A stretch of 64,000 nucleotides of DNA from an uncultured Gammaproteobacteria bacterium (GCA_964649615.1 CAZYPW010000007.1:8734-72733); one strand, 5' to 3'. Positions 1-11,824 are shown, counted from the stretch's first letter. Notes: generated by a model not told the origin, from the sequence alone. Numbers and translations: made by a program.

Positions 1-1708
1 TGATGCCAATCGTGCCTTGATGGGAACTCAGATGCAATGCCAGGCAGTCCCACTGCTTCTTCCTCAATCTCCAATTGTGGGAACTGGTATGGAAAGAATT
101 GTCGCTGATAATATGGGCAGGGTAGTTAGGGCGCCTGAAGATGGAACTGTCACGTATGTTGATGGCAAAAAGTTGGTTCTGAAAGGTAAAAAAGATGAAT
201 ACAAATATGAGATCAGAAAATTTGTCCATTCTCCTCAGGGAACTTGTTATTCTCAAAAACCTATTGTTAATTTAGGTCAAAAGGTCTCCAGAGGAGATCT
301 TTTAATTGATGGAGCAGCCACAGATAAAGGAGATTTGGCACTGGGTACTAATTTATTGATTGCTTATATGAGTTTTGAAGGTTTGGGTTATGAAGATGCT
401 ATTGTGATTTCGGATAGGCTGGTTAAAGATGATGCCCTAACTTCAATTCATATTGAAGAGTATGAAATTGATGTGGTGGAAACCAAATTAGGCCCTGAGG
501 AGCTGACACGGGATATCCCTAATGTATCTGAAGATGCTTTAGCTAATTTAGATGAGGCGGGTTTAATCAGGATTGGAGCAGAGGTTGGGCCAAGTGATAT
601 CTTGGTTGGTAAAGTTCAACCAAAAGGAGAAACAGAGCTAACAGCTGAAGAAAGATTACTTAGAGCAATATTTGGAGAAAAAGCCAAAGAAGTAAGAGAC
701 ACCTCTTTGAGAATTCCCCATGGAGAAAGAGGAACGGTGATTGGAATCCAAATTCTCTCCAGAGATAAAGGAGATGAATTAGACACCGGCACTTTAATGA
801 GAATTAAAGTCAAAGTAGCCCAGATGAGAAAAGTGACTGAAGGAGATAAGTTGGCAGGCAGGCATGGCAACAAAGGAGTAATTTCCAAAATTGTGCCAAT
901 TGCTGATATGCCTCATTTAGAAGATGGAACACCGGTTGATATTGTCATCTCTCCCCTCTCTGTTTTATCCCGTATGAATTTAGGTCAGCTTTTAGAAACC
1001 CATTGGGGTTTTGCAGCCTCAAAATTAGGCTATAAAGTAGCAGCTCCTGTTTTTGAAAAGATTCCTGAAGATAAATTAATAGAAGAATTGAAAAAAGCAG
1101 GATTGTCTGTTGATGGTAAAGTCAGGCTGATTGATGGCAGGTCTGGCCAGGCTTTTGATAGATCAATTGTGGTGGGCAGAAACTATATTCTAAAACTAAT
1201 CCATATGGTGGAGGAAAAGATTCATGCCCGCTCCACTGGCCCTTATTCTTTGGTGACTCAACAGCCTTTGGGTGGAAAAGCTCAAATGGGAGGACAAAGA
1301 TTAGGAGAGATGGAAGTTTGGGCACTGGAAGCATATGGAGCAGCCCATATTTTACAGGAAATGTTAACTATCAAATCTGATGATGTGGTAGGGAGAGCTA
1401 AGGCCTTTGAGGCAATAGTCAAAGGGATTGATATCCCACAGGCCTTGATTCCAGAATCCTTTAAGGTTTTAGTTAAAGAATTACAAGCATTGGGCCTATC
1501 AGTGGATACAATAGGGGCAAAAATTATTCAAGCTCCTGAGGTTGAAGAAAAGCCGTCAATTGTAGAAGAAGTTGCAGAGTTAGAACAGGCTTTAGAGGCT
1601 AAAGTTTCTGCATCTGAGGAAGAGTTAAGTTTGCAGTCAAGCCCCTTTGAAGTAGTTGACCCCGATAAAATTGGGGTTGGTGTAGAGAAAGAAAAGGAGG
1701 CAGAATGA
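1..1708 (+). CDS. rpoB: DNA-directed RNA polymerase beta subunit, C-terminal part (gene starts upstream of window)
   Basis: Frame open from the window edge. Conserved RpoB C-terminal blocks ([61 protein letters not shown]). Acidic C-terminal tail. Stop overlaps the rpoC start (ATGA). Confidence 0.92.
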
Positions 1709-4700
1709 ATGATCTAATAGATTTTGAAAGCTTGAAGTTAACAGCGGCCTCGCCTGAACAAGTCAGAAGCTGGTCTTTTGGTGAAGTAACCAAGCCAGAA
1801 ACTATTAATTATAGAACGCTAAAGGCTGAAAAAGATGGACTTTTTTCTGAAAATATCTTTGGCCCCACCAAGGATTATGAATGTTATTGTGGAAAATACA
1901 AAAGAATTAGGTATAGAGGAGTGATTTGTGATAAATGTGGAGTGGAAGTAACCCAAAGCAAGGTTAGGCGCGAGAGAATGGGCCATATTAATTTAGCCTC
2001 CCCTGTTGCCCATATCTGGTTTGTCAAAGGTGCCCCTTCAAAATTATCATTACTTTTGGAGATCTCCCCTAAAAATTTGGAGGCTGTTATTTATTTTGCC
2101 TCATATTTGGTGATCAATGTTGATCCTGCTGGAAAGGCTGCTGCTTTAGAAAAACTAGAAAAAGATTTAGTGAAAAAGCAGGATGAACAAAAGCAAGCTT
2201 TGGAAAAAAATATTAAAGGATTAGAAGATATCCTCAAAAAAGACCTATCTGAACTTAAGAAAAAAATTGATAAAGAAAAATTTGAGTTAGAAGCTCAAGA
2301 AGTGGAGCTTAAAAACAGGTCAGAAAAACAAAAATTAAGAGATAATTTAGTAGTAGAACAAGGTACTCTGGAGAGTATCTATCAAGCTGTAGCCAGCTTG
2401 GTTAAGTCTGTGGCAGTGTCTAAGCTTTTATCTGAAGAAGAATATTTTAAGCTTGATGAATATGGAGTTTCTGAGTTTATTACTGTGAGTATGGGAGCAG
2501 AGGCACTTCTCGAAATTTTACAAAAATTAGATTTAGATAAATTATCAGCTTCCCTGCGGGAGGAAGTCAGAAAATCCACTGGCCAAAAACATATCAAAGC
2601 TACCAAGCGCTTGCGGATTATTGAGGGCATGAGGGGTGCCAGTGTTAGGCCTGAGTGGTTGATCATGAAGATTTTACCTATTTTACCTCCGGATCTGCGC
2701 CCTATGGTCCAGCTGCCTGGAGGCAGGTTTGCCACCTCAGATTTAAATGATTTATACAGAAGAGTGATTAATAGGAATAACCGTTTAAATAGGCTGATTA
2801 ATCTTGGGGCGCCAGAAATAATTTTAAGAAATGAAAAAAGAATGCTTCAGGAAGCAGTCGATTCTTTAATTGATGCCACCTCCAGAACCTCCAGAAGAGC
2901 AGGCCCTCAAGCTGCGCATAATTTAAGGTCACTTTCTGATATGTTAAGGGGTAAACAAGGCAGGTTTAGGCAAAATTTGTTAGGCAAAAGAGTGGATTAT
3001 TCTGGCAGGTCAGTGATTGTGGTGGGCCCAAAACTAAAATTAGACCAAGTTGGCTTGCCAAAAGAGATGGCTTTGGAGATGTTTAAACCCTTTGTGCTGC
3101 GTGAGATGATAGGAAGGGGAATGTCTGCCAATGTTAAGGGAGCCAAAAATGTGCTGGAAGCCCGCCCTAATGAAGTCTGGGATATTTTAGAGGAGATTAT
3201 CACAGGCCACCCTATTTTAATCAATCGTGCTCCCACCTTGCATAGATTAGGCATCCAGGCCTTTTTCCCAGTCTTGGTTGATGGAAATGCTATTAAAATT
3301 CACCCTTGTATTTGTGCAGGATTTAATGCTGACTTTGATGGAGACCAGATGGCAATTCATGTGCCATTATCTGATAAAGCTCAAGAAGAGGCTAAAGCTT
3401 TGATGACGGCTAAAGAAAATATCTTTGGCCCAGCCCATGCCCAACCAATTACTGTGCCAAATAGAGAAATGGCCTTAGGTTGTTATTACCTAACCCAGAT
3501 TGAGGAAAGCAGTAATGATGAATTGAAATTATTTACCTCTGAAGAAGATGCGATCAGAGCTTATCAGATAGGTAAGCTTGCATTAAAACAAAAAATTAAA
3601 GTTAGAGTTTTAAAGGAGATAGTTGAAACTTCAGTAGGAAGAGTATTTTTCAATAAAGTTTTGCCTGAAAGCATGAGATTTTTTAACCAAACAGTTAAAG
3701 GTATCACCATTAGGGATTTGATCTTGAAGGCTACTGAAACAATGACTAAACAAGAAGTGGTTGATTTGATAGATAATATTAAAACTGTTGGTTTTTGGGC
3801 TGTCACCAATGCTGGTATTTCCATTGGGATATTTGATGCCAAGATTGTCCCTAATAAACAAGAATATTTACAAAGAGCTGAGGTTGAAATTGAGAAAGTA
3901 GAAGCGAATTTAGCCAAAGGGTTAATTACCCTCACTGAAAAATCCCAACTTTCTCAAATGGTTTGGATTCAAACTACTGAAGAGTTAGCTAATGCTACCT
4001 GGGACTTTTTAGGCATGGATAATCCAATCAGGATGATGGTTGAGGCTGGAGCCCGGGGATCCCGTGATCAAGCCAAACAGCTATCAGCCATGAGAGGTTT
4101 ATCTACAGATCCAACAGGAAAGATTGTGGAGCTGCCTACTAAATCTAACTATAGGCAGGGTTTATCTGTATTTGAATACTTTACATCCGCCCGTGGCGCT
4201 AGAAAAGGGGTAGCTGATAAAGCGTTAAAAACTGCTGATGCAGGGTATCTGACTAGAAGACTCGTGGATGTAGCCCATGATGTGATTATTAGAATGGACG
4301 ATTGTGGTACTGATAAGGGATTGGAATATGATCTTTCTAAAGTAAGTTTCCCAGTAGCCAGAGAAAAAGTTTTAGGCAGGATGCTTGTTCAGAATGTCAC
4401 AGAAGAGGGAAGCAGAAAAGTGCTCTTTAAGACAGGCATAATTTTGGCAGAAGAGGAGATTAATGTTTTGCTTAAGTTTTCTGTAAAAACTTTGGTAGCC
4501 CGCTCCCCCTTAACTTGTGAATCAAGATATGGAATTTGTGCTGCTTGTTATGGATTAGATTTAACTACCAGGCAGATTGTTAAAATTGGTACTCCTGTTG
4601 GGGTGGTAGCAGCCCAAGCTATTGGTGAACCAGGAACTCAGTTAACTATGAGAACTTTCCATACTGGAGGAATTGTGGGACTAGATATTACCCAAGGGCT

Positions 4701-5397
4701 GCCTAGGGTAGAAGAGTTATTTGAAGCCAGAACCCCCAAGATTACAGCTCCAGTCTCTGAGATTGCTGGAAAAGTATCTATTGTAGAAAATGAAGATGGC
4801 GGAACCAAGGTTAGAGTCAGAACTACCCAAAAACCTCATGAAGAAAGGGAATATATTATTCCAGCCTCTGCCCAAATCTTGGTTGAAGAAGGGCAGTTAA
4901 TCTCTGCTGGAGCAGTCTTGGCCTCAGGCCATATTGATGTTAAAGAGCTCCTTCGGGTTCAAGGTTTAAGAGATGCCCAAAGATATATTGTGGATGAAGT
5001 AAGAAGCGTTTATGAATCTCAGGGTGTGCCTATTAATGAAAAACATTTTGAAACAATTGTGAGAAAGATGTCTGATAAAGTTAGAGTTGAATCACAGGGG
5101 GACACTAATTTATTGCCAGGTGAGATTATTGATAAACTCAAGTTTGAGGAAGAAAACAAGAGGGTTTTAGCAGGTGGCGGTGAACCATCAACAGCAGAGG
5201 TAGTTATTTTAGGCATCACCAGAGCCTCCCTGCAAACTGAAAGCTTCCTATCTGCTGCATCTTTTCAGGAAACTACCACTATTTTGTCTGATGCAGCTGT
5301 TTCTGGCAAAGTAGATAAGTTGTTAGGCCTAAAAGAGAATGTTATAATAGGGCGCTTGATACCGACAAGCGAAGAAAGGGCAAGAATAGAAGGGTAA
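1705..5397 (+). CDS. rpoC: DNA-directed RNA polymerase beta' subunit
   Basis: 1230 aa. Zn-finger [23 protein letters not shown], catalytic NADFDGDQM, trigger-loop/bridge-helix regions, C-terminal GRLIPT motif. Confidence 0.95.
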
Positions 5398-5976: not shown

Positions 5977-6449
5977 GAAGCAAAAAAGCCCCTAAAAGAT
6001 TAATTCAGGAGGATCCTTTATATGGATCAAAGATGCTACAGAGGTTTATTAATAGATTAATGGTTGATGGTAAAAAATCTGTTGCCCAATCTTTAGTTTA
6101 TAAAGCTTTAGAAAATATTAAAGAAACCACTAAGCAAGAACCTTTAGGAGTTTTTGAAAGAGCTATCCAAAATATCTCTCCCAAAATGGAAGTAAGGCCC
6201 AGAAGGGTAGGAGGAGCTTCATATCAGGTTCCAGTTGAGGTGAGGGGAGATAGAAAAGAAGCCCTGGCTATAAGATGGCTTATTGCTGCAGCAAAAAATA
6301 GGCCTAATTCATCTTTTCACAGCTTTGATCTAAAATTAGCCCAAGAATTTATAGATGCAGCTAATAACCAAGGCTTAGCTATTAAGAAAAAAGAAGATAT
6401 GCAAAAAACAGCAGCTGCTAATAGGGCATTTTCTCACTTCAGATGGTAA
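5973..6449 (+). CDS. rpsG: 30S ribosomal protein S7
   Basis: 158 aa. S7 family blocks ([34 protein letters not shown]). Confidence 0.95.
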
Positions 6450-7348
6450 ATTCAGAAAGAAAAGCTGCTCTAATTACTGGTGCTGCAAGTGGAATGGGAT
6501 TTGAAACTGTAAAAAGATTCTCTAAGGATCCTAGATATAATCCCATTTATGCTCTAGATTTAGACCCTTCTGTACATACAATTTTTGAAGCTGCACAATA
6601 TCCTCAAGTAGTTGCTCTTCAAGTAGATATTAGAAAAGGAAATGAAATTGCTCAAGTGTTTGACAAAGTACTCAAAGAAACCAAAAATCTTGATGTGGTT
6701 GTGAATGCTGCAGGAATAATAATTGCTGGTGATGCACAGGGTCCAGAGGGTGAAAAGCAAATTGCCAATCTTAATGATACAAATTTCTTCGGACAGATGT
6801 ATGTAATGCAAAGAGCAGAAATTGCTATGGAAAGTAGAGAAGGCGGAGTTATTATAAATGTAACTTCTGCAAAAGATTATTTTCCAGATCCTTTCCGTTT
6901 TGAATATATGTTATCAAAAATCAGATTTGAAGAGATGAGTTTATATGATGGAGAAAGATTAAGAGAGGATGGAGTTAGGATTGTAGTTGTTAAACCAGGG
7001 AATACAAAAACTCATATAGATAGAAGAGATTGGACTCAAGGCTATAACGAGGGAGAAATGAAAGCAGTACAAGGATTTAATGACTGGTGGAGAAGAACTT
7101 TTGGCAATGATCCTAAAAATGTTGCAGAGGTTATATACAAAATTGCTGAAGGGGAAATTGATAACTCTGTAGTGCCAGTAGGTCTTGATGCTAAGCTGGG
7201 ATATCTTTTAGTAAAAATCCCATTTTGGAGAGCAATGTTTTTCCTAGGAGCAGCTGGAGTTTATGCAGGAATTATAAAGTTACAAAATTTGCGTGATCGT
7301 CTTCCTTTTAAAGGTTATAATTCAAGAGATGATAAAAATAATTTTTGA
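6443..7348 (+). CDS. short-chain dehydrogenase/reductase (SDR) family oxidoreductase
   Basis: N-terminal TGAASGMG Rossmann motif. NAAG. Catalytic S...YMLSK (YxxxK). Start overlaps the rpsG stop by 7 nt. Confidence 0.8.
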   Translation: MVNSERKAALITGAASGMGFETVKRFSKDPRYNPIYALDLDPSVHTIFEAAQYPQVVALQVDIRKGNEIAQVFDKVLKETKNLDVVVNAAGIIIAGDAQGPEGEKQIANLNDTNFFGQMYVMQRAEIAMESREGGVIINVTSAKDYFPDPFRFEYMLSKIRFEEMSLYDGERLREDGVRIVVVKPGNTKTHIDRRDWTQGYNEGEMKAVQGFNDWWRRTFGNDPKNVAEVIYKIAEGEIDNSVVPVGLDAKLGYLLVKIPFWRAMFFLGAAGVYAGIIKLQNLRDRLPFKGYNSRDDKNNF

Positions 7349-7863
7349 GACCCATTCAACTTCTATTGATAATGAGAAGCATCTTTCCTCTGGACATAAT
7401 GATGCAGAGTTGTCTTTTTTAGGTATAAAGCAGGCAAAAGAACTGGGTGAAAGATACCAGGATCAGGAATTTGATGCAATCTTTGTTTCTGATTTACAAA
7501 GATCATACAAAACAGCAGAGATTGCTTTTGGAGAAAAATTTCCCATAATTCGTGATAAAAGACTGCGGGAATGTGATTATGGAGATTTAACTGGACATCC
7601 ATCTAATGAGGTAGAGCTACTTAAAGTGGAACATATAACTGTGCCATTTCCAAATGGAGAATCCTATAAAGACTGTCTAAAAAGGATGAAGGGGTTTTTA
7701 GATGAATTAATACATTATATCACGGCCGTAGCATAAATGTATTAATAATTGGTCATAGAGCAACCCAGTATGGATTAGAACATTTAATCAATGGAGTTGA
7801 TCTAGAAACTTTAGTCACCACTCCCTTTAAATGGCAACCAGGCTGGGTTTATCAGGTGAGTTG
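7329..7863 (+). pseudogene. histidine phosphatase (phosphoglycerate mutase-like) family gene, frameshifted and degenerate
   Basis: Frame 1 (7329-7736) aligns to PGM branch-1 (FETHS in place of RHGES; FDAIFVSDLQRSYKTAEIA). It stops at 7736. The C-terminal His motif (HGRSINVLIIGHRATQ...) continues in the -1 frame to 7863. The Arg of RHG is lost. Confidence 0.55.
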
Positions 7864-7895
7864 ACTTTTAGGATCAAAAACATTAATATTTACAT

Positions 7896-7929
7896 CTAGC
7901 CTCCTGAATTTGAGGGGGCTTCTTTTTTT
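7896..7929 (+). terminator. intrinsic terminator (AGCCUCC-loop-GGGGGCU followed by UCUUUUUUU) ending the SDR/phosphatase insert
   Basis: 7-bp stem including one G-U pair, followed by a T-run. Confidence 0.5.
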
Positions 7930-7944
7930 ATGTAGGATATAAAT

Positions 7945-8178
7945 ATGGACAAGATGGATAATAAGTTACGTCAAGAAAAATTAAAGATGTGGAGAGAAAA
8001 CCTCAAGAAACTTGAGGATCAACTGGTGGCTGTTCAACATAAAAAAGGACTTGCTGCTCAAGAAGGGGATTTATCTGAAAATGCAGCCTATACTATGGCT
8101 ATTGAGGATGCAGAAACTTTTAGAGTGCAGATTGAACAGGTAAAGAAAATAATTCAAGAATTAGAAGGAGGAAAATAG
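7945..8178 (+). CDS. GreA/GreB N-terminal coiled-coil domain-only protein (77 aa)
   Basis: QEGDLSENAAY matches the Gre coiled-coil tip (HGDLKENAEY) including the two acidic tip residues. No FKBP-like C-terminal domain. Stop abuts the fusA start. Confidence 0.55.
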   Translation: MDKMDNKLRQEKLKMWRENLKKLEDQLVAVQHKKGLAAQEGDLSENAAYTMAIEDAETFRVQIEQVKKIIQELEGGK

Positions 8179-10320
8179 ATGGCTACACAGAAGACAAAAA
8201 GAGACTTTCCGCTTGATAGAATACGTAATATTGGAATCATAGCCCATATTGATGCTGGCAAAACAACCACCACCGAAAGAATCCTTTTTTATACAGGCAG
8301 AACTTATAAAATTGGTGATATTGATGAAGGAACCACAGTGACTGATTGGATGGAGCAGGAAAAAGAGAGAGGAATTACCATTGTTTCTGCAGCTATCACT
8401 ACTTTTTGGATAGTTAAATCTGGTGGGATGTTTAATGGGGAAGAAGTAAGGATTAATTTGATTGATACCCCAGGCCACGTTGATTTTACAGCAGAAGTAG
8501 AAAGATCCTTGAGGGTTTTAGATGGAGCAGTGATTGTATTAGATAGTGCCTCTGGTGTGCAATCCCAAACAGAAACTGTTTGGAGGCAGGCTATTAAGTA
8601 TAGTGTACCTTTGATTGCTTTTGCCAACAAAATGGATGTGTTGGGAGCAGATTTTGCTGCCACTATCCAATCTGCCAGAGATAGATTAGGGGCTAATGCT
8701 ATTGCTTACAACTTGCCCATAGGCAAAGAGAATGATTTTAAAGGAGTAGTTGATCTATTAACCCAAAAAGTTTTAGTTTGGGAAGGTGATGATACTGGAG
8801 CTAAGTTTAACGAGGGTGAAATTCCAGCTGATATGGTTGAGGAAGTTAAAGCAGCTAGAGAGAAATTAGTAGAAGAGATTGCGGGAACTGATGATACTTT
8901 GATGGAAAAATACTTAAATGGGCAGGAAATTTCTGTGGGTGAGTTGCAAAAAGCCTTAAGGCAGGCAGTGATTGCCAATAAAATTGTGCCTGTTTTTGCA
9001 GGATCATCTTTGCGAAATAAAGGTGTCCAACCCATGCTGGATGCAGTGGTCCAATATTTGCCCTCCCCCCAAGATATTGCTAAAGTGGATGGAACAAATC
9101 CTCAGACAGGAGAGACAGAAGAAAGAAAAGCAGATCCTACTGCACCACTTTCTGCTTTAGCTTTTAAAATTCAAGTTGATCCTCATGTGGGCAAGTTAAC
9201 TTATATTAGAGTTTATTCAGGCACCTTAAAAAGTGGAACATATGTTTATAATGCTACTAAGCAGATAAAAGAACGAATTGGCAGGCTGCTTTTGATGCAT
9301 GCCAATGATAGAGAAGAGATAGATGAAGCATATGCAGGAGAGATTGTAGCTGCAGTTGGGCTTAAAGATACAACCACAGGAGATACTTTGTGTGAGGATA
9401 ATGCTCCCATTATTTTAGAGTCTATTTCTTTCCCAGAACCTGTTATCTCTTTAGCAATCGAACCAAAAACTAAATCCGACCAGGAGAAGCTAGGTTATGC
9501 CTTGCAAAGGCTGTCTGAGGAAGACCCAACTTTTAGAGTCAAGTCTGACCATGAAACAGGCCAAACTATTATTGCTGGAATGGGTGAGCTGCAGCTAGAG
9601 GTTTTGGTAGATAGGATGAAAAGAGAGTTTAAGGTTGAAGCAAATGTGGGCCAGCCTCAAGTTGCTTATAAAGAAACTATTCAAAAATCAGCAGAAGGGG
9701 AAGGTAAATATATCAGGCAAACTGGAGGTAGGGGCCAGTATGGCCATTGTTTGCTTAGAATTGAACCTCTCCCCAGAGGAACAGGCAGAGAATTTGTCTC
9801 AGAAGTGGTGGGAGGTGCTATCCCCAGGGAGTTTATTTCTCCAATAGAAAAAGGAGTTATTGAAAAAGAAGATACAGGAATTCTGGCAGGTTATCCTGTA
9901 ACTGATATTAAAGTTACAGTTTATGATGGATCCTACCATGATGTTGATTCATCTGAGATTGCCTTTAAGATTGCTGCATCCTTAGGTTTATCTGAAGCTG
10001 CTAAAAGGGCAGATCTGATCCTGCTTGAGCCTATCATGAAGGTGGAAGTGACCACTCCTGAGGAGTTTTTAGGAGAAATTATTGGTGACCTGTCTTCTAA
10101 AAGAGCCCAAATTGTCTCTTCTGAGACCCAAAACAAAGCCAGAGTGGTTTTAGCTTATGTGCCTTTGGCTGAGATGCATGGATATGCCACTTCTTTAAGA
10201 AGCATGTCTCAAGGTAGAGCCACCTACTACATGGAAGCAGACCACTATGAACCAGTTCCAGCTAATATCACTGCTAAAATAGTAGAATCCTCAGGCTTTA
10301 CAGGCAGAGTTGAACATTAA
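8179..10320 (+). CDS. fusA: elongation factor G
   Basis: 713 aa. [16 protein letters not shown]-domain, DTPGHVDF, full EF-G domain order. Confidence 0.95.
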
Positions 10321-10562
10321 ATTGCTTTATGTTATAAAGTATAAATTATGCCAGTATATGAAGTAGAGCCGAGATTTAGAGTTTCATTATGTTCGCGGTC
10401 GAGAATATAATGTCATTGTTTGCAGCTAAGTATTTTAGAGAAAAAGCAAAAAGGAGAAAAAGATGAGCTTTGGTGAAATCACCAATGGAGTTGCACTAAT
10501 GTACATTGCTTTTTGGAAAAAAGACACTTCGCGTAAATCTTCAAAGAGATCTTAAATTCTCC

Positions 10563-10597
10563 TCTTGCATTATCAGGCAGTTTATTGTATATTTACT
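10563..10597 (+). promoter_or_regulatory. candidate sigma70-type promoter for tuf (TTGCAT-17-TATATT)
   Basis: Spacing and hexamers read directly. Lies about 45 nt upstream of the tuf ATG. Confidence 0.35.
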
Positions 10598-10639
10598 TCA
10601 TCCAGCTGGGATATAGCTGGTTTTTAAAGATTTAAAATT

Positions 10640-11824
10640 ATGGCAGATGTAAAAAAATTTGATAGATCAAAACCACACGTAAATGTAGGAACAATGGGCC
10701 ACGTTGACCATGGTAAAACCACTCTTACAGCAGCAATTACTAATGTTTTAGCTGCTAAAGGTTTGGCTGAAAAAAGATCAGTTGATCAAATTGATAACGC
10801 CCCTGAAGAAAAAGCCCGTGGCATCACCATTAACATTTCCCACCAAGAATATGAAACAGAAAAAAGGCACTATGCCCATATCGACATGCCTGGCCACGCA
10901 GATTATATTAAAAACATGATTACTGGAGCAGCTCAAACAGATGGCGCCATTTTAGTGGTTTCAGCTCCAGATGGTCCCATGCCTCAAACTAGAGAACATC
11001 TTTTGCTTGCTAAACAAGTAGGAGTTCCAGCCATTGTAGTTTTTCTTAATAAAGTAGATATGGTTGATGATCCAGAACTGCTTGATTTGGTGGAAGAAGA
11101 AGTTCGTGATTTACTTAAAAAATATGAATATGATCCACAATCTCCAATAATCAGAGGTTCTGCTAAAAAAGCGCTAGAAGGTGACGGCGAAGCTGTAAAA
11201 GCAGTTGAAGAGTTAATGAACAAAGTTGATGAGTGGATTCCTACTCCAGTTCGTGACAAAGATAAGCCATTTTTGATGGCAGTTGAAGATGTTTTCTCTA
11301 TTAAAGGCAGGGGAACAGTGGTGACAGGAAGAATTGAAAGAGGAGTTGTAAAGGTTAATGAAGAGATTGAGATTATTGGTATTAGGCCTACTAAAAAGTC
11401 AGTGGTAACTGGAATTGAGATGTTTCATAAATTATTAGATCAGGGAGAAGCTGGAGATAATGCAGGGATTCTCCTGCGAGGAGTGGAAAAAGATGATGTG
11501 GAAAGAGGACAAGTTTTAGCTAAACCTGGTTCTATCACCCCTCACAGTGAATTTGAAGCAGAAGTTTACATTTTATCTAAAGAAGAAGGTGGAAGGCATA
11601 CACCATTTTTTAAAGGCTACAGGCCACAGTTTTACATCAGAACTACTGATGTGACCGGTGAAGTACAACTTCCAGAAGGTGTGGAAATGGCCATGCCGGG
11701 AGATACGGTTAAAGTGACCGGCAAATTAATTACACCGGTGGCTATGGAAGAAGGTTTAAGGTTTGCTGTTCGTGAAGGCGGTAAAACTGTGGGAGCTGGA
11801 GTGATTACCAAAATAATAGCTTAA
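10640..11824 (+). CDS. tuf: elongation factor Tu
   Basis: 394 aa. [23 protein letters not shown]-terminal beta-barrel domains. Confidence 0.97.

Follow-up and report, generated by a model that had tools for sequence, protein, structure and literature searches.

A Short Gre-Like Protein Encoded Directly Upstream of fusA: A Conserved Family of Candidatus Daviesbacteria and Their Microgenomates Relatives

A textbook Gre factor consists of a needle that reaches the active site of RNA polymerase and a globular anchor. This description raises a simple question when a gene is encountered that appears to encode only the needle: is it a broken greA, or can such a protein be of use to the cell without the rest of the factor? 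An open reading frame (ORF) of this type is present directly upstream of fusA in a 64,000-nucleotide stretch of bacterial DNA that was analyzed at its full length (hereafter called the window). The initial annotation left two explanations standing, namely a remnant of a greA gene disrupted by rearrangement and a minimal factor of the RNA polymerase secondary channel. Comparative sequence evidence favors the minimal secondary-channel factor, and it is very likely that the encoded protein, here termed mini-Gre, is a real and functional protein built from the Gre N-terminal domain. The coding features of the locus are the following.

7945-8178, + strand: the mini-Gre ORF, 77 codons from the ATG at 7945, encoding helix 1, the tip loop and helix 2
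7990-7992, + strand: the codon for Trp16, at the hairpin base in the motif K-L-K-M-W (residues 12-16)
8065-8091, + strand: the tip codons, G41-D42-L-S-E45-N-A-A-Y49 (D42 at 8068-8070, E45 at 8077-8079), corresponding to the catalytic loop of E. coli GreA (D41, E44)
8166-8171, + strand: the fusA Shine-Dalgarno sequence AGGAGG, within the last mini-Gre codons and 7 nt before the fusA ATG
8179-10320, + strand: fusA, the downstream gene, encoding EF-G (713 aa)

As originally described, the ORF abuts fusA, with its TAG stop at 8176-8178 adjoining the fusA ATG at 8179. The 77-aa form that begins at ATG 7945 is the one annotated by NCBI (GCA_016176385.1, contig JACOXE010000004.1). However, the product is probably 74 aa long and initiated from the second Met (ATG 7954), because alignments of the family begin at this position. 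The 77-codon product carries no Cys residues.

The proposal that this protein corresponds to the N-terminal coiled coil of Gre factors and has kept its acidic tip intact (GDLSENAAY, 8065-8091) was borne out by profile searches. Pfam family PF03449 (GreA_GreB_N) matches mini-Gre with E = 2e-6 and 28.4 bits, above the curated gathering cutoff of 24.5 bits, and the match spans profile positions 3-69 of 71. The NCBIfam greA models match via their N-terminal halves only (for TIGR01462, positions 3-67 of 151 with E = 7.8e-8), and the full-length models yield 32.5 bits against a cutoff of 139. An HMM constructed from the N-terminal domains of full-length GreA proteins scores mini-Gre at 61.0 bits, compared to 10.5 bits for the best of 2,000 shuffled sequences, although this model over-weights the tip, many of its members having been retrieved through the DLSENAAY pattern. 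Indeed, the bulk of the discriminating score obtained with this HMM derives from the nine-residue tip, and the helices alone, with the tip masked, still score 13.1 bits. The tip of Shapirobacteria-type GreA is DLKENSAY, unlike that of mini-Gre, and therefore an hhalign comparison to these proteins (97.6% probability, E = 2.9e-12, 42% identity over 53 ungapped columns) and the Pfam score serve as independent checks. By these measures the homology is not an artefact of composition, and this concern about the original motif similarity can be set aside.

Structure prediction is in agreement with this assignment. The AlphaFold2 model of mini-Gre is a two-helix hairpin (helices 2-39 and 47-75, pLDDT 86.9). 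When this model is compared to the PDB using Foldseek, GreA structures rank at the top (9a7t_B and 1grj, rmsd 1.3-1.4 A) with E-values of 0.18-0.3, which are not significant because helical hairpins are common, and the ranking serves as a consistency check only. A phmmer search of the PDB sequences with the 77-aa protein returned only a designed helical repeat (E = 0.41), and the DksA/TraR family (zf-dskA_traR) is absent from the Pfam matches to mini-Gre even to E = 10. Overall, the architecture is that of a single domain, with a full-length coiled coil and an intact catalytic tip, and it does not resemble the two-domain proteins Gfh1, Rnk or Rv3788.

The absence of a Gre C-terminal domain, also claimed at the outset, was upheld in every reading frame of the window. 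The Pfam scan gave no PF01272 match in mini-Gre, an HMM of the Gre C-terminal domain found nothing in the six-frame translation of the 64-kb window, and a tblastn search of the window with E. coli GreA likewise revealed no C-terminal domain, with a best E-value of 0.27 across both searches. There is also no space for such a domain between the mini-Gre ORF and fusA. A split Gre factor, in which a separate C-terminal domain or another polymerase-bound protein provides the anchor in trans, must nonetheless be considered, given that the ORF stops precisely at the point where GreA continues into its interdomain linker (the E. coli N-terminal domain being residues 1-75; PMC7104715, PMC7527559) and that the regions inspected comprise one 64-kb window plus stretches of 8-20 kb around fusA. 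This arrangement is improbable, since split genes are usually adjacent, whereas no C-terminal-domain gene is located in the window or beside mini-Gre in more than 55 loci. The sole conserved neighbor is fusA, and no other conserved partner gene accompanies mini-Gre.

A search of 5.8 billion proteins recovered 387 relatives, and the best 120 of these are all 63-109 aa in length and contain PF03449 alone. Those that are named among the 120 are listed as 'hypothetical protein' of Candidatus Daviesbacteria or of 'Patescibacteria group bacterium'. When 1.84 billion cluster representatives were scanned exhaustively with HMMER, 40 matches were obtained, of which approximately 27 are shorter than 105 aa and lack the C-terminal domain, and full-length GreA proteins appeared only at E = 6.5e-6 or weaker. 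By sequence, mini-Gre is thus placed in a protein family that is conserved among Candidatus Daviesbacteria and their relatives within the Microgenomates (Patescibacteria/CPR), an uncultivated groundwater lineage. Many of the species-representative genomes that carry the locus (L005, L007-L009, L012, L016, L018 and others) are titled 'uncultured Gammaproteobacteria bacterium'. These genomes are binchicken co-assemblies in which the locus is typical of Patescibacteria, and the titles are evidently placeholders or wrong taxonomy.

The position of the gene is as well preserved as its length. In a collection of species-representative genomes, mini-Gre is located directly 5' of fusA in at least 52 species-level loci (L005-L056 minus the duplicates L014 and L029, together with L001 and L003 from an exact-protein look-up). 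This slot lies downstream of rpoB-rpoC-rpsL-rpsG in the cluster rpoB-rpoC-rpsL-rpsG-...-fusA-tuf, of which the beta' gene occupies 1705-5397 in the window. The distance from the mini-Gre stop to the fusA start, as extrapolated from tblastn coordinates, is 5 nt or less in 39 of the 52 loci whatever genes are present upstream, whereas the interval from rpsG to mini-Gre ranges from 27 nt to 3.5 kb and holds differing inserted genes. Two divergent loci (L089 and L090) also keep the gene directly 5' of fusA, and the exceptions to this adjacency form one sub-clade (L057-L061). The proteins are 46 to 92% identical to one another and are accompanied by 35 distinct hairpin sequences, and so they are not assembly duplicates of one genome.

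The sequences also carry the marks of selection. The dN/dS ratio between the window gene and its nearest relatives is 0.02-0.09, and the median over 163 pairs that are unsaturated at synonymous sites is 0.16 (Nei-Gojobori method, 61 ungapped codons). There are no internal stops in 57 mini-Gre sequences. The acidic pair and the Tyr of the GDLSENAAY tip were invariant in 27 of 27 family members and then in all 57, and across all short forms the Asp is kept in 76 of 81 and the Glu in 78 of 81. By these codon-based estimates, mini-Gre is under strong purifying selection.

These observations bear directly on the proposal that the ORF is a decaying, functionless remnant of a greA gene that was truncated by a rearrangement inserting genes between rpsG and fusA. 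The C-terminal domain is missing, as a truncation would require, and in the window two unrelated genes and a hairpin do separate rpsG from the mini-Gre ORF. However, the short gene occupies the same position in at least 52 species-level genomes that have differing upstream inserts, its tip is invariant, and it shows dN/dS values of 0.03-0.16 while synonymous sites are saturated, again with no internal stops. Furthermore, the full-length greA genes of Shapirobacteria are not adjacent to fusA. The remnant explanation offered by the initial annotation is refuted by these findings, and the chance that it is correct is exceedingly small.

The inserted genes are of some interest in their own right. 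In the window, the region between rpsG and fusA carries at 6443-7736 a short-chain dehydrogenase gene (301 aa, overlapping the rpsG stop) and a gene of the histidine-phosphatase family. Both this interval and the one from fusA to tuf carry other inserts in other species, an example being the PhdYeFM/ParE toxin-antitoxin pair and RelA_SpoT gene of L001. Judged by gene content, the str cluster of this lineage is an insertion hotspot.

Even though mini-Gre shares its domain with GreA, the family has a signature of its own. A Trp residue occupies a core position at the hairpin base in 80 of 81 short forms and in 0 of 38 full-length GreA proteins, which have Leu, Ile or Tyr at the position of Trp16; in this comparison the short forms share a phylogenetic relationship, and the full-length proteins are few and come mainly from Patescibacteria. 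The Trp signature is present even in the most divergent short subfamilies, which suggests that the domain-only architecture might have arisen once and then diversified. The mini-Gre clade is therefore defined here as proteins of 68-90 aa that carry PF03449 only and have K-[LI]-K-x-W at the hairpin base. The window protein has all of these features (77 or 74 aa, K-L-K-M-W), and it is encoded directly 5' of fusA.

Among full-length proteins, the nearest relatives are GreA proteins of 149 aa from Candidatus Shapirobacteria, another Microgenomates lineage, which have in common with mini-Gre the signature [KR]-G-x-A-A-x-x-G-D-L. In a search with a Microgenomates GreA profile, every identifiable protein among the best 120 of 1,804 matches was from Shapirobacteria. 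Two Shapirobacteria genomes have greA at a site away from fusA, with neighbors that differ from one genome to the other. A truncation that occurred at an ancestral greA locus was therefore rejected as the source of mini-Gre. More distant matches in Saccharibacteria, Nealsonbacteria and Dojkabacteria are ordinary GreA proteins of 150-180 aa. No fusA was detected in the fetched flanks of these genes, and the greA loci of other Patescibacteria have no neighbors in common with the window.

The initial annotation had noted a terminator just upstream of the ORF. The hairpin and its T-run are real, yet this element is more than the end of the upstream gene, because a conserved promoter directly precedes it. 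The relevant features in the window are as follows.

7861-7866, + strand: the -35 element TTGACT, identified by a promoter scan, inside a longer conserved block TTGACTTTTAGGATCA
7884-7889, + strand: the -10 element TAATAT, 17 nt after the -35 element, completing a conserved sigma70-type promoter
7898-7920, + strand: a GC-rich hairpin AGCCTCCTGAATTTGAGGGGGCT with an 8 bp stem and a 7-nt loop (z = -2.45, -12.8 kcal/mol)
7921-7929, + strand: a T-run TCTTTTTTT after the hairpin, giving the shape of an intrinsic terminator

Right after the T-run is an ATG-TAG start-stop (7930-7935) that lies 10 nt 5' of the annotated mini-Gre start.

The arrangement TTGACT-N17-TAATAT is kept in approximately 34 of 36 aligned loci that bear the hairpin, and immediately 5' of the stem the motif AATATTTAC hardly varies. 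The spacing from the -10 element to the stem is 8-10 nt across loci and 8 nt in the window. Transcription of mini-Gre and fusA would therefore start near 7896, about 1-2 nt before the stem, and because the conserved promoter directly precedes the hairpin, the hairpin is predicted to sit at the extreme 5' end of the mini-Gre/fusA mRNA. There is no space for a promoter between the T-run and the mini-Gre ATG. Conservation extends past the -35 element as TTGACT-TTTAGGATCA (7867-7876 in the window, with equivalents in L001-L054), and this segment has an outer TTGA...TCAA symmetry. The block is more conserved than a -35 box requires, and it could be the binding site of a regulator.

A hairpin with a T-run ends within 110 nt upstream of the mini-Gre start in 35 of 50 loci, with the shape GCCTCCC, loop, GAGGGAGG, and then the T-run. 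Elsewhere on the + strand of the same loci, only 22 terminator-like hairpins occur in approximately 396 kb, which corresponds to an enrichment of about 100-fold at mini-Gre, and only 2 of these 22 have the stem shape seen at mini-Gre. Since the set was picked by a hairpin scanner, the statement that all members fold is circular, but the enrichment and the sequence conservation are not. RNAalifold recovered only 3 pairs from a MAFFT alignment of the hairpins, in which two stem variants were aligned out of register, and a structure-anchored count was used in its place. No Rfam match was obtained for the hairpin or for the region from rpsG to tuf. The promoter-plus-hairpin block precedes mini-Gre whatever gene lies upstream. 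The cassette is missing in L021, L036 and L038, where the rpsG stop is 27-28 nt from mini-Gre, and in these loci the gene is the third cistron of the str operon.

A leader of this general form is known from E. coli. There, greA is preceded by a strong promoter and a hairpin shaped like an intrinsic terminator (greA leader terminator / GraL), two-thirds of transcripts end within the leader, and GreA uses it to autoinhibit its expression (PMC2836576, PMC6829880). The mini-Gre cassette has a similar layout, but here a cassette is also found before tuf, with these components in the window.

10565-10593: the promoter part of the tuf cassette, TTGCAT (10565-10570), 17 nt and TATATT (10588-10593), followed by 8 nt
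10602-10620: the tuf hairpin CCAGCTGGGATATAGCTGG, followed by a T-run and then the ATG at 10640

The tuf stem (CCAGCT...AGCTGG) differs from the mini-Gre stem, and at least 12 other loci have it after fusA or before tuf. Because layout and 8-nt spacing are the same at tuf, the cassette probably belongs to this lineage's highly expressed genes in general and is not a feedback device specific to Gre, and autoregulation of the GraL type via the leader hairpin was down-weighted for this reason. The cassette could act as a 5' stabilizer, as an insulator against read-through from upstream, or as an attenuator. The spacer between fusA and tuf also contains a 30-codon ORF MSFGEITNGVALMYIAFWKKDTSRKSSKRS at 10463-10555 that is not among the gene calls of the record. 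It has a strong Shine-Dalgarno sequence (AAGGAG) 8 nt upstream and encodes a hydrophobic core followed by a basic tail.

At the other end of the gene, the placement of the fusA Shine-Dalgarno sequence inside mini-Gre and the abutting stop and start codons imply that the two genes may be translationally coupled, and the small protein would then be made in large amounts. The possibility that read-through yields a fusion with EF-G was also entertained, given that the TAG and the ATG are in frame in the window, and was rejected on the basis that the gap and the frame vary among species. The close association with fusA does invite a quite different explanation, according to which mini-Gre does not act in transcription and its hairpin has been recruited to a task in translation, for instance binding EF-G or the ribosome. 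In addition to fusA being the only invariant neighbor, with stop and start codons that usually overlap or abut, there is a weak match to the ribosome-associated NCBIfam family YibL (E = 0.019, far under its cutoff). However, this match is within coiled-coil noise, and similar chance matches appear in the Pfam scan. The invariant tip is a Gre active-site motif that has no known ribosomal role, and the location of the gene in the rpoB-rpoC-str cluster fits a link to RNA polymerase equally well. A translation-related role thus seems quite unlikely.

The reading preferred here is that mini-Gre serves as a cleavage or anti-arrest factor within RNA polymerase's secondary channel, to which we assign a probability of roughly 55% from the comparisons described above. 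In this mechanism, the hairpin would enter the secondary channel as the N-terminal domain of GreA does, and the carboxylates of D42 and E45 would help to hold the catalytic Mg2+ and water at the active center. Backtracked RNA would thereby be cleaved and arrested polymerase rescued.

In favor of this mechanism, mini-Gre is homologous to the N-terminal antiparallel coiled coil of GreA and GreB (PF03449 plus PF01272; PDB 1GRJ, 2P4V). Helix lengths agree to within about 3 residues, the tip Asp is at position 39-42 (41 in E. coli), both have identical tip chemistry (G-D-L-x-E-N-A-x-Y), and the predicted fold superimposes on 1GRJ at 1.3 A. The differences are that mini-Gre is without the globular C-terminal domain that anchors Gre factors to polymerase, that a core Leu or Ile is replaced by an invariant Trp, and that the gene is fixed upstream of fusA instead of residing at a free-standing greA locus. 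A secondary-channel factor of this size has a precedent in TraR, a 73-aa plasmid-encoded minimal relative of DksA, which demonstrates that a protein of approximately 70-75 residues can still work on RNA polymerase. TraR has the unrelated zinc-finger fold of the DksA/TraR family, and it regulates initiation, not cleavage.

A protein made of the same part has also been produced in the laboratory. In PMC7104715 and PMC7527559, which cite Koulich et al. (1997, 1998), residues 1-75 of E. coli GreA are described as the N-terminal domain that carries the determinants for inducing cleavage. E. coli GreA requires its C-terminal domain to bind polymerase and the two domains together to be fully active (PMC7104715, PMC7527559), and so weak binding is to be expected of an N-terminal domain by itself. 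The engineered GreA 1-75 fragment (Koulich et al. 1997, 1998; plasmid pHM1885, PMC7527559) is essentially the same protein part as mini-Gre, with the distinction that the fragment was made in the laboratory, binds polymerase poorly and is incompletely active, whereas mini-Gre is a natural gene kept by selection throughout a lineage. The missing anchor might be offset by abundance, because expression appears to be coupled to that of EF-G and the protein would be made in step with it, by residues at the hairpin base such as Trp16, or by both.

Diversification within the family is a further point in favor of this reading. One divergent subfamily, with the tip G-D-W-H/Q-E-N-A-E-F/Y, comprises 30 proteins of 68-114 aa, all with PF03449 only. 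Tandem mini-Gre pairs are present 5' of fusA in L089 (7619-8231) and L090 (7835-8246), on contigs of 1.18 Mb and 609 kb. In each pair the copy with a main-type tip (GDLRENAAY or GDLRENAAF) comes first, followed next to fusA by the copy with GDWHENAEF or GDWQENAEY. The tandem genes overlap by 11-23 nt, with the upstream copies, called as 130 and 62 aa, having uncertain starts. In the sub-clade L057-L061, three of the five loci have a tandem paralog with a degenerate tip (L059 4256-4480, L060 1797-2018, L061 1835-2053), which adjoins a copy with an intact tip in a context without fusA. The tip of these paralogs, S-D/E-S-M-x-V-G-Y-L-S-E-N-A-Y, has a conserved change of Asp to Tyr and a deletion of one residue. 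By analogy, they could be inactive partners of the Gfh1 type. Gfh1 (Thermus; PDB 2F23, 3AOI) and Rv3788 (M. tuberculosis), which have no cleavage activity, are possible analogues of the variant-tip paralogs in L059-L061, with the differences that both keep two domains and that the tip of the window protein is intact. With its tandem, variant-tip and degenerate-tip paralogs, the clade therefore shows the behavior of a functional gene family from which specialized and possibly inhibitory members emerge, much as two-domain Gre factors gave rise to GreB and Gfh1.

These paralogs bring a competing explanation to the fore, in which mini-Gre is itself a secondary-channel regulator or competitor similar to Gfh1, Rv3788 or DksA/TraR that tunes initiation, pausing or factor access and does not stimulate cleavage. 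Several members have altered or degenerate tips (GYLSENA-Y in L059-L061, as well as altered or deleted tips in a few representatives, P0136, P0148, P0126 and P0132), and the pairing of different tips in tandem recalls systems of the GreA/Gfh1 type. Without a C-terminal domain, the binding mode and residence time should also differ from those of GreA. Inhibitory Gre homologues that lack cleavage activity are known (Rv3788, cited in PMC7104715). Nevertheless, the window protein and the core family keep the catalytic D-x-x-E and the Tyr throughout 57 sequences, a motif that a pure blocker would not need. A purely regulatory role is accordingly a credible minority view, and cleavage or anti-arrest activity remains the preferred reading of the intact-tip proteins.

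A more ambitious version of the proposal holds that mini-Gre is the only Gre-type factor of these genomes, that the coiled coil alone suffices for cleavage or anti-arrest in vivo, and that the lineage possesses a whole anchor-less secondary-channel toolkit, with tandem and dead-tip paralogs echoing GreA, GreB and Gfh1 and with expression tied to EF-G. This combination is speculative and should be regarded as doubtful.

Regardless of the precise function, what is new can be separated from what is known. The Gre domain and its chemistry are known, whereas the anchor-less architecture, the clade-specific Trp, the fixed coupling to fusA and the tandem paralogs are new. No description of domain-only Gre proteins was found in the searchable literature (using PF03449 or GreA_GreB_N, and GreA with Daviesbacteria or Microgenomates), and PMC12455944 contains no GreA data. 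The proteins are mostly labelled 'hypothetical protein' in current databases.

There are several lessons that might be drawn from this family. Because mini-Gre is fixed to fusA inside the rpoBC-str cluster, the arrangement suggests that the capacity for transcript rescue scales with the amount of translation machinery made. That a needle-only Gre protein has been selected, duplicated and diversified is an argument that some polymerase contexts do not require the anchor. Mini-Gre also offers a minimal system of approximately 74 residues for studying entry into the secondary channel and function there, as TraR does for DksA, and it adds a testable case of protein miniaturization in the streamlined CPR/Patescibacteria.
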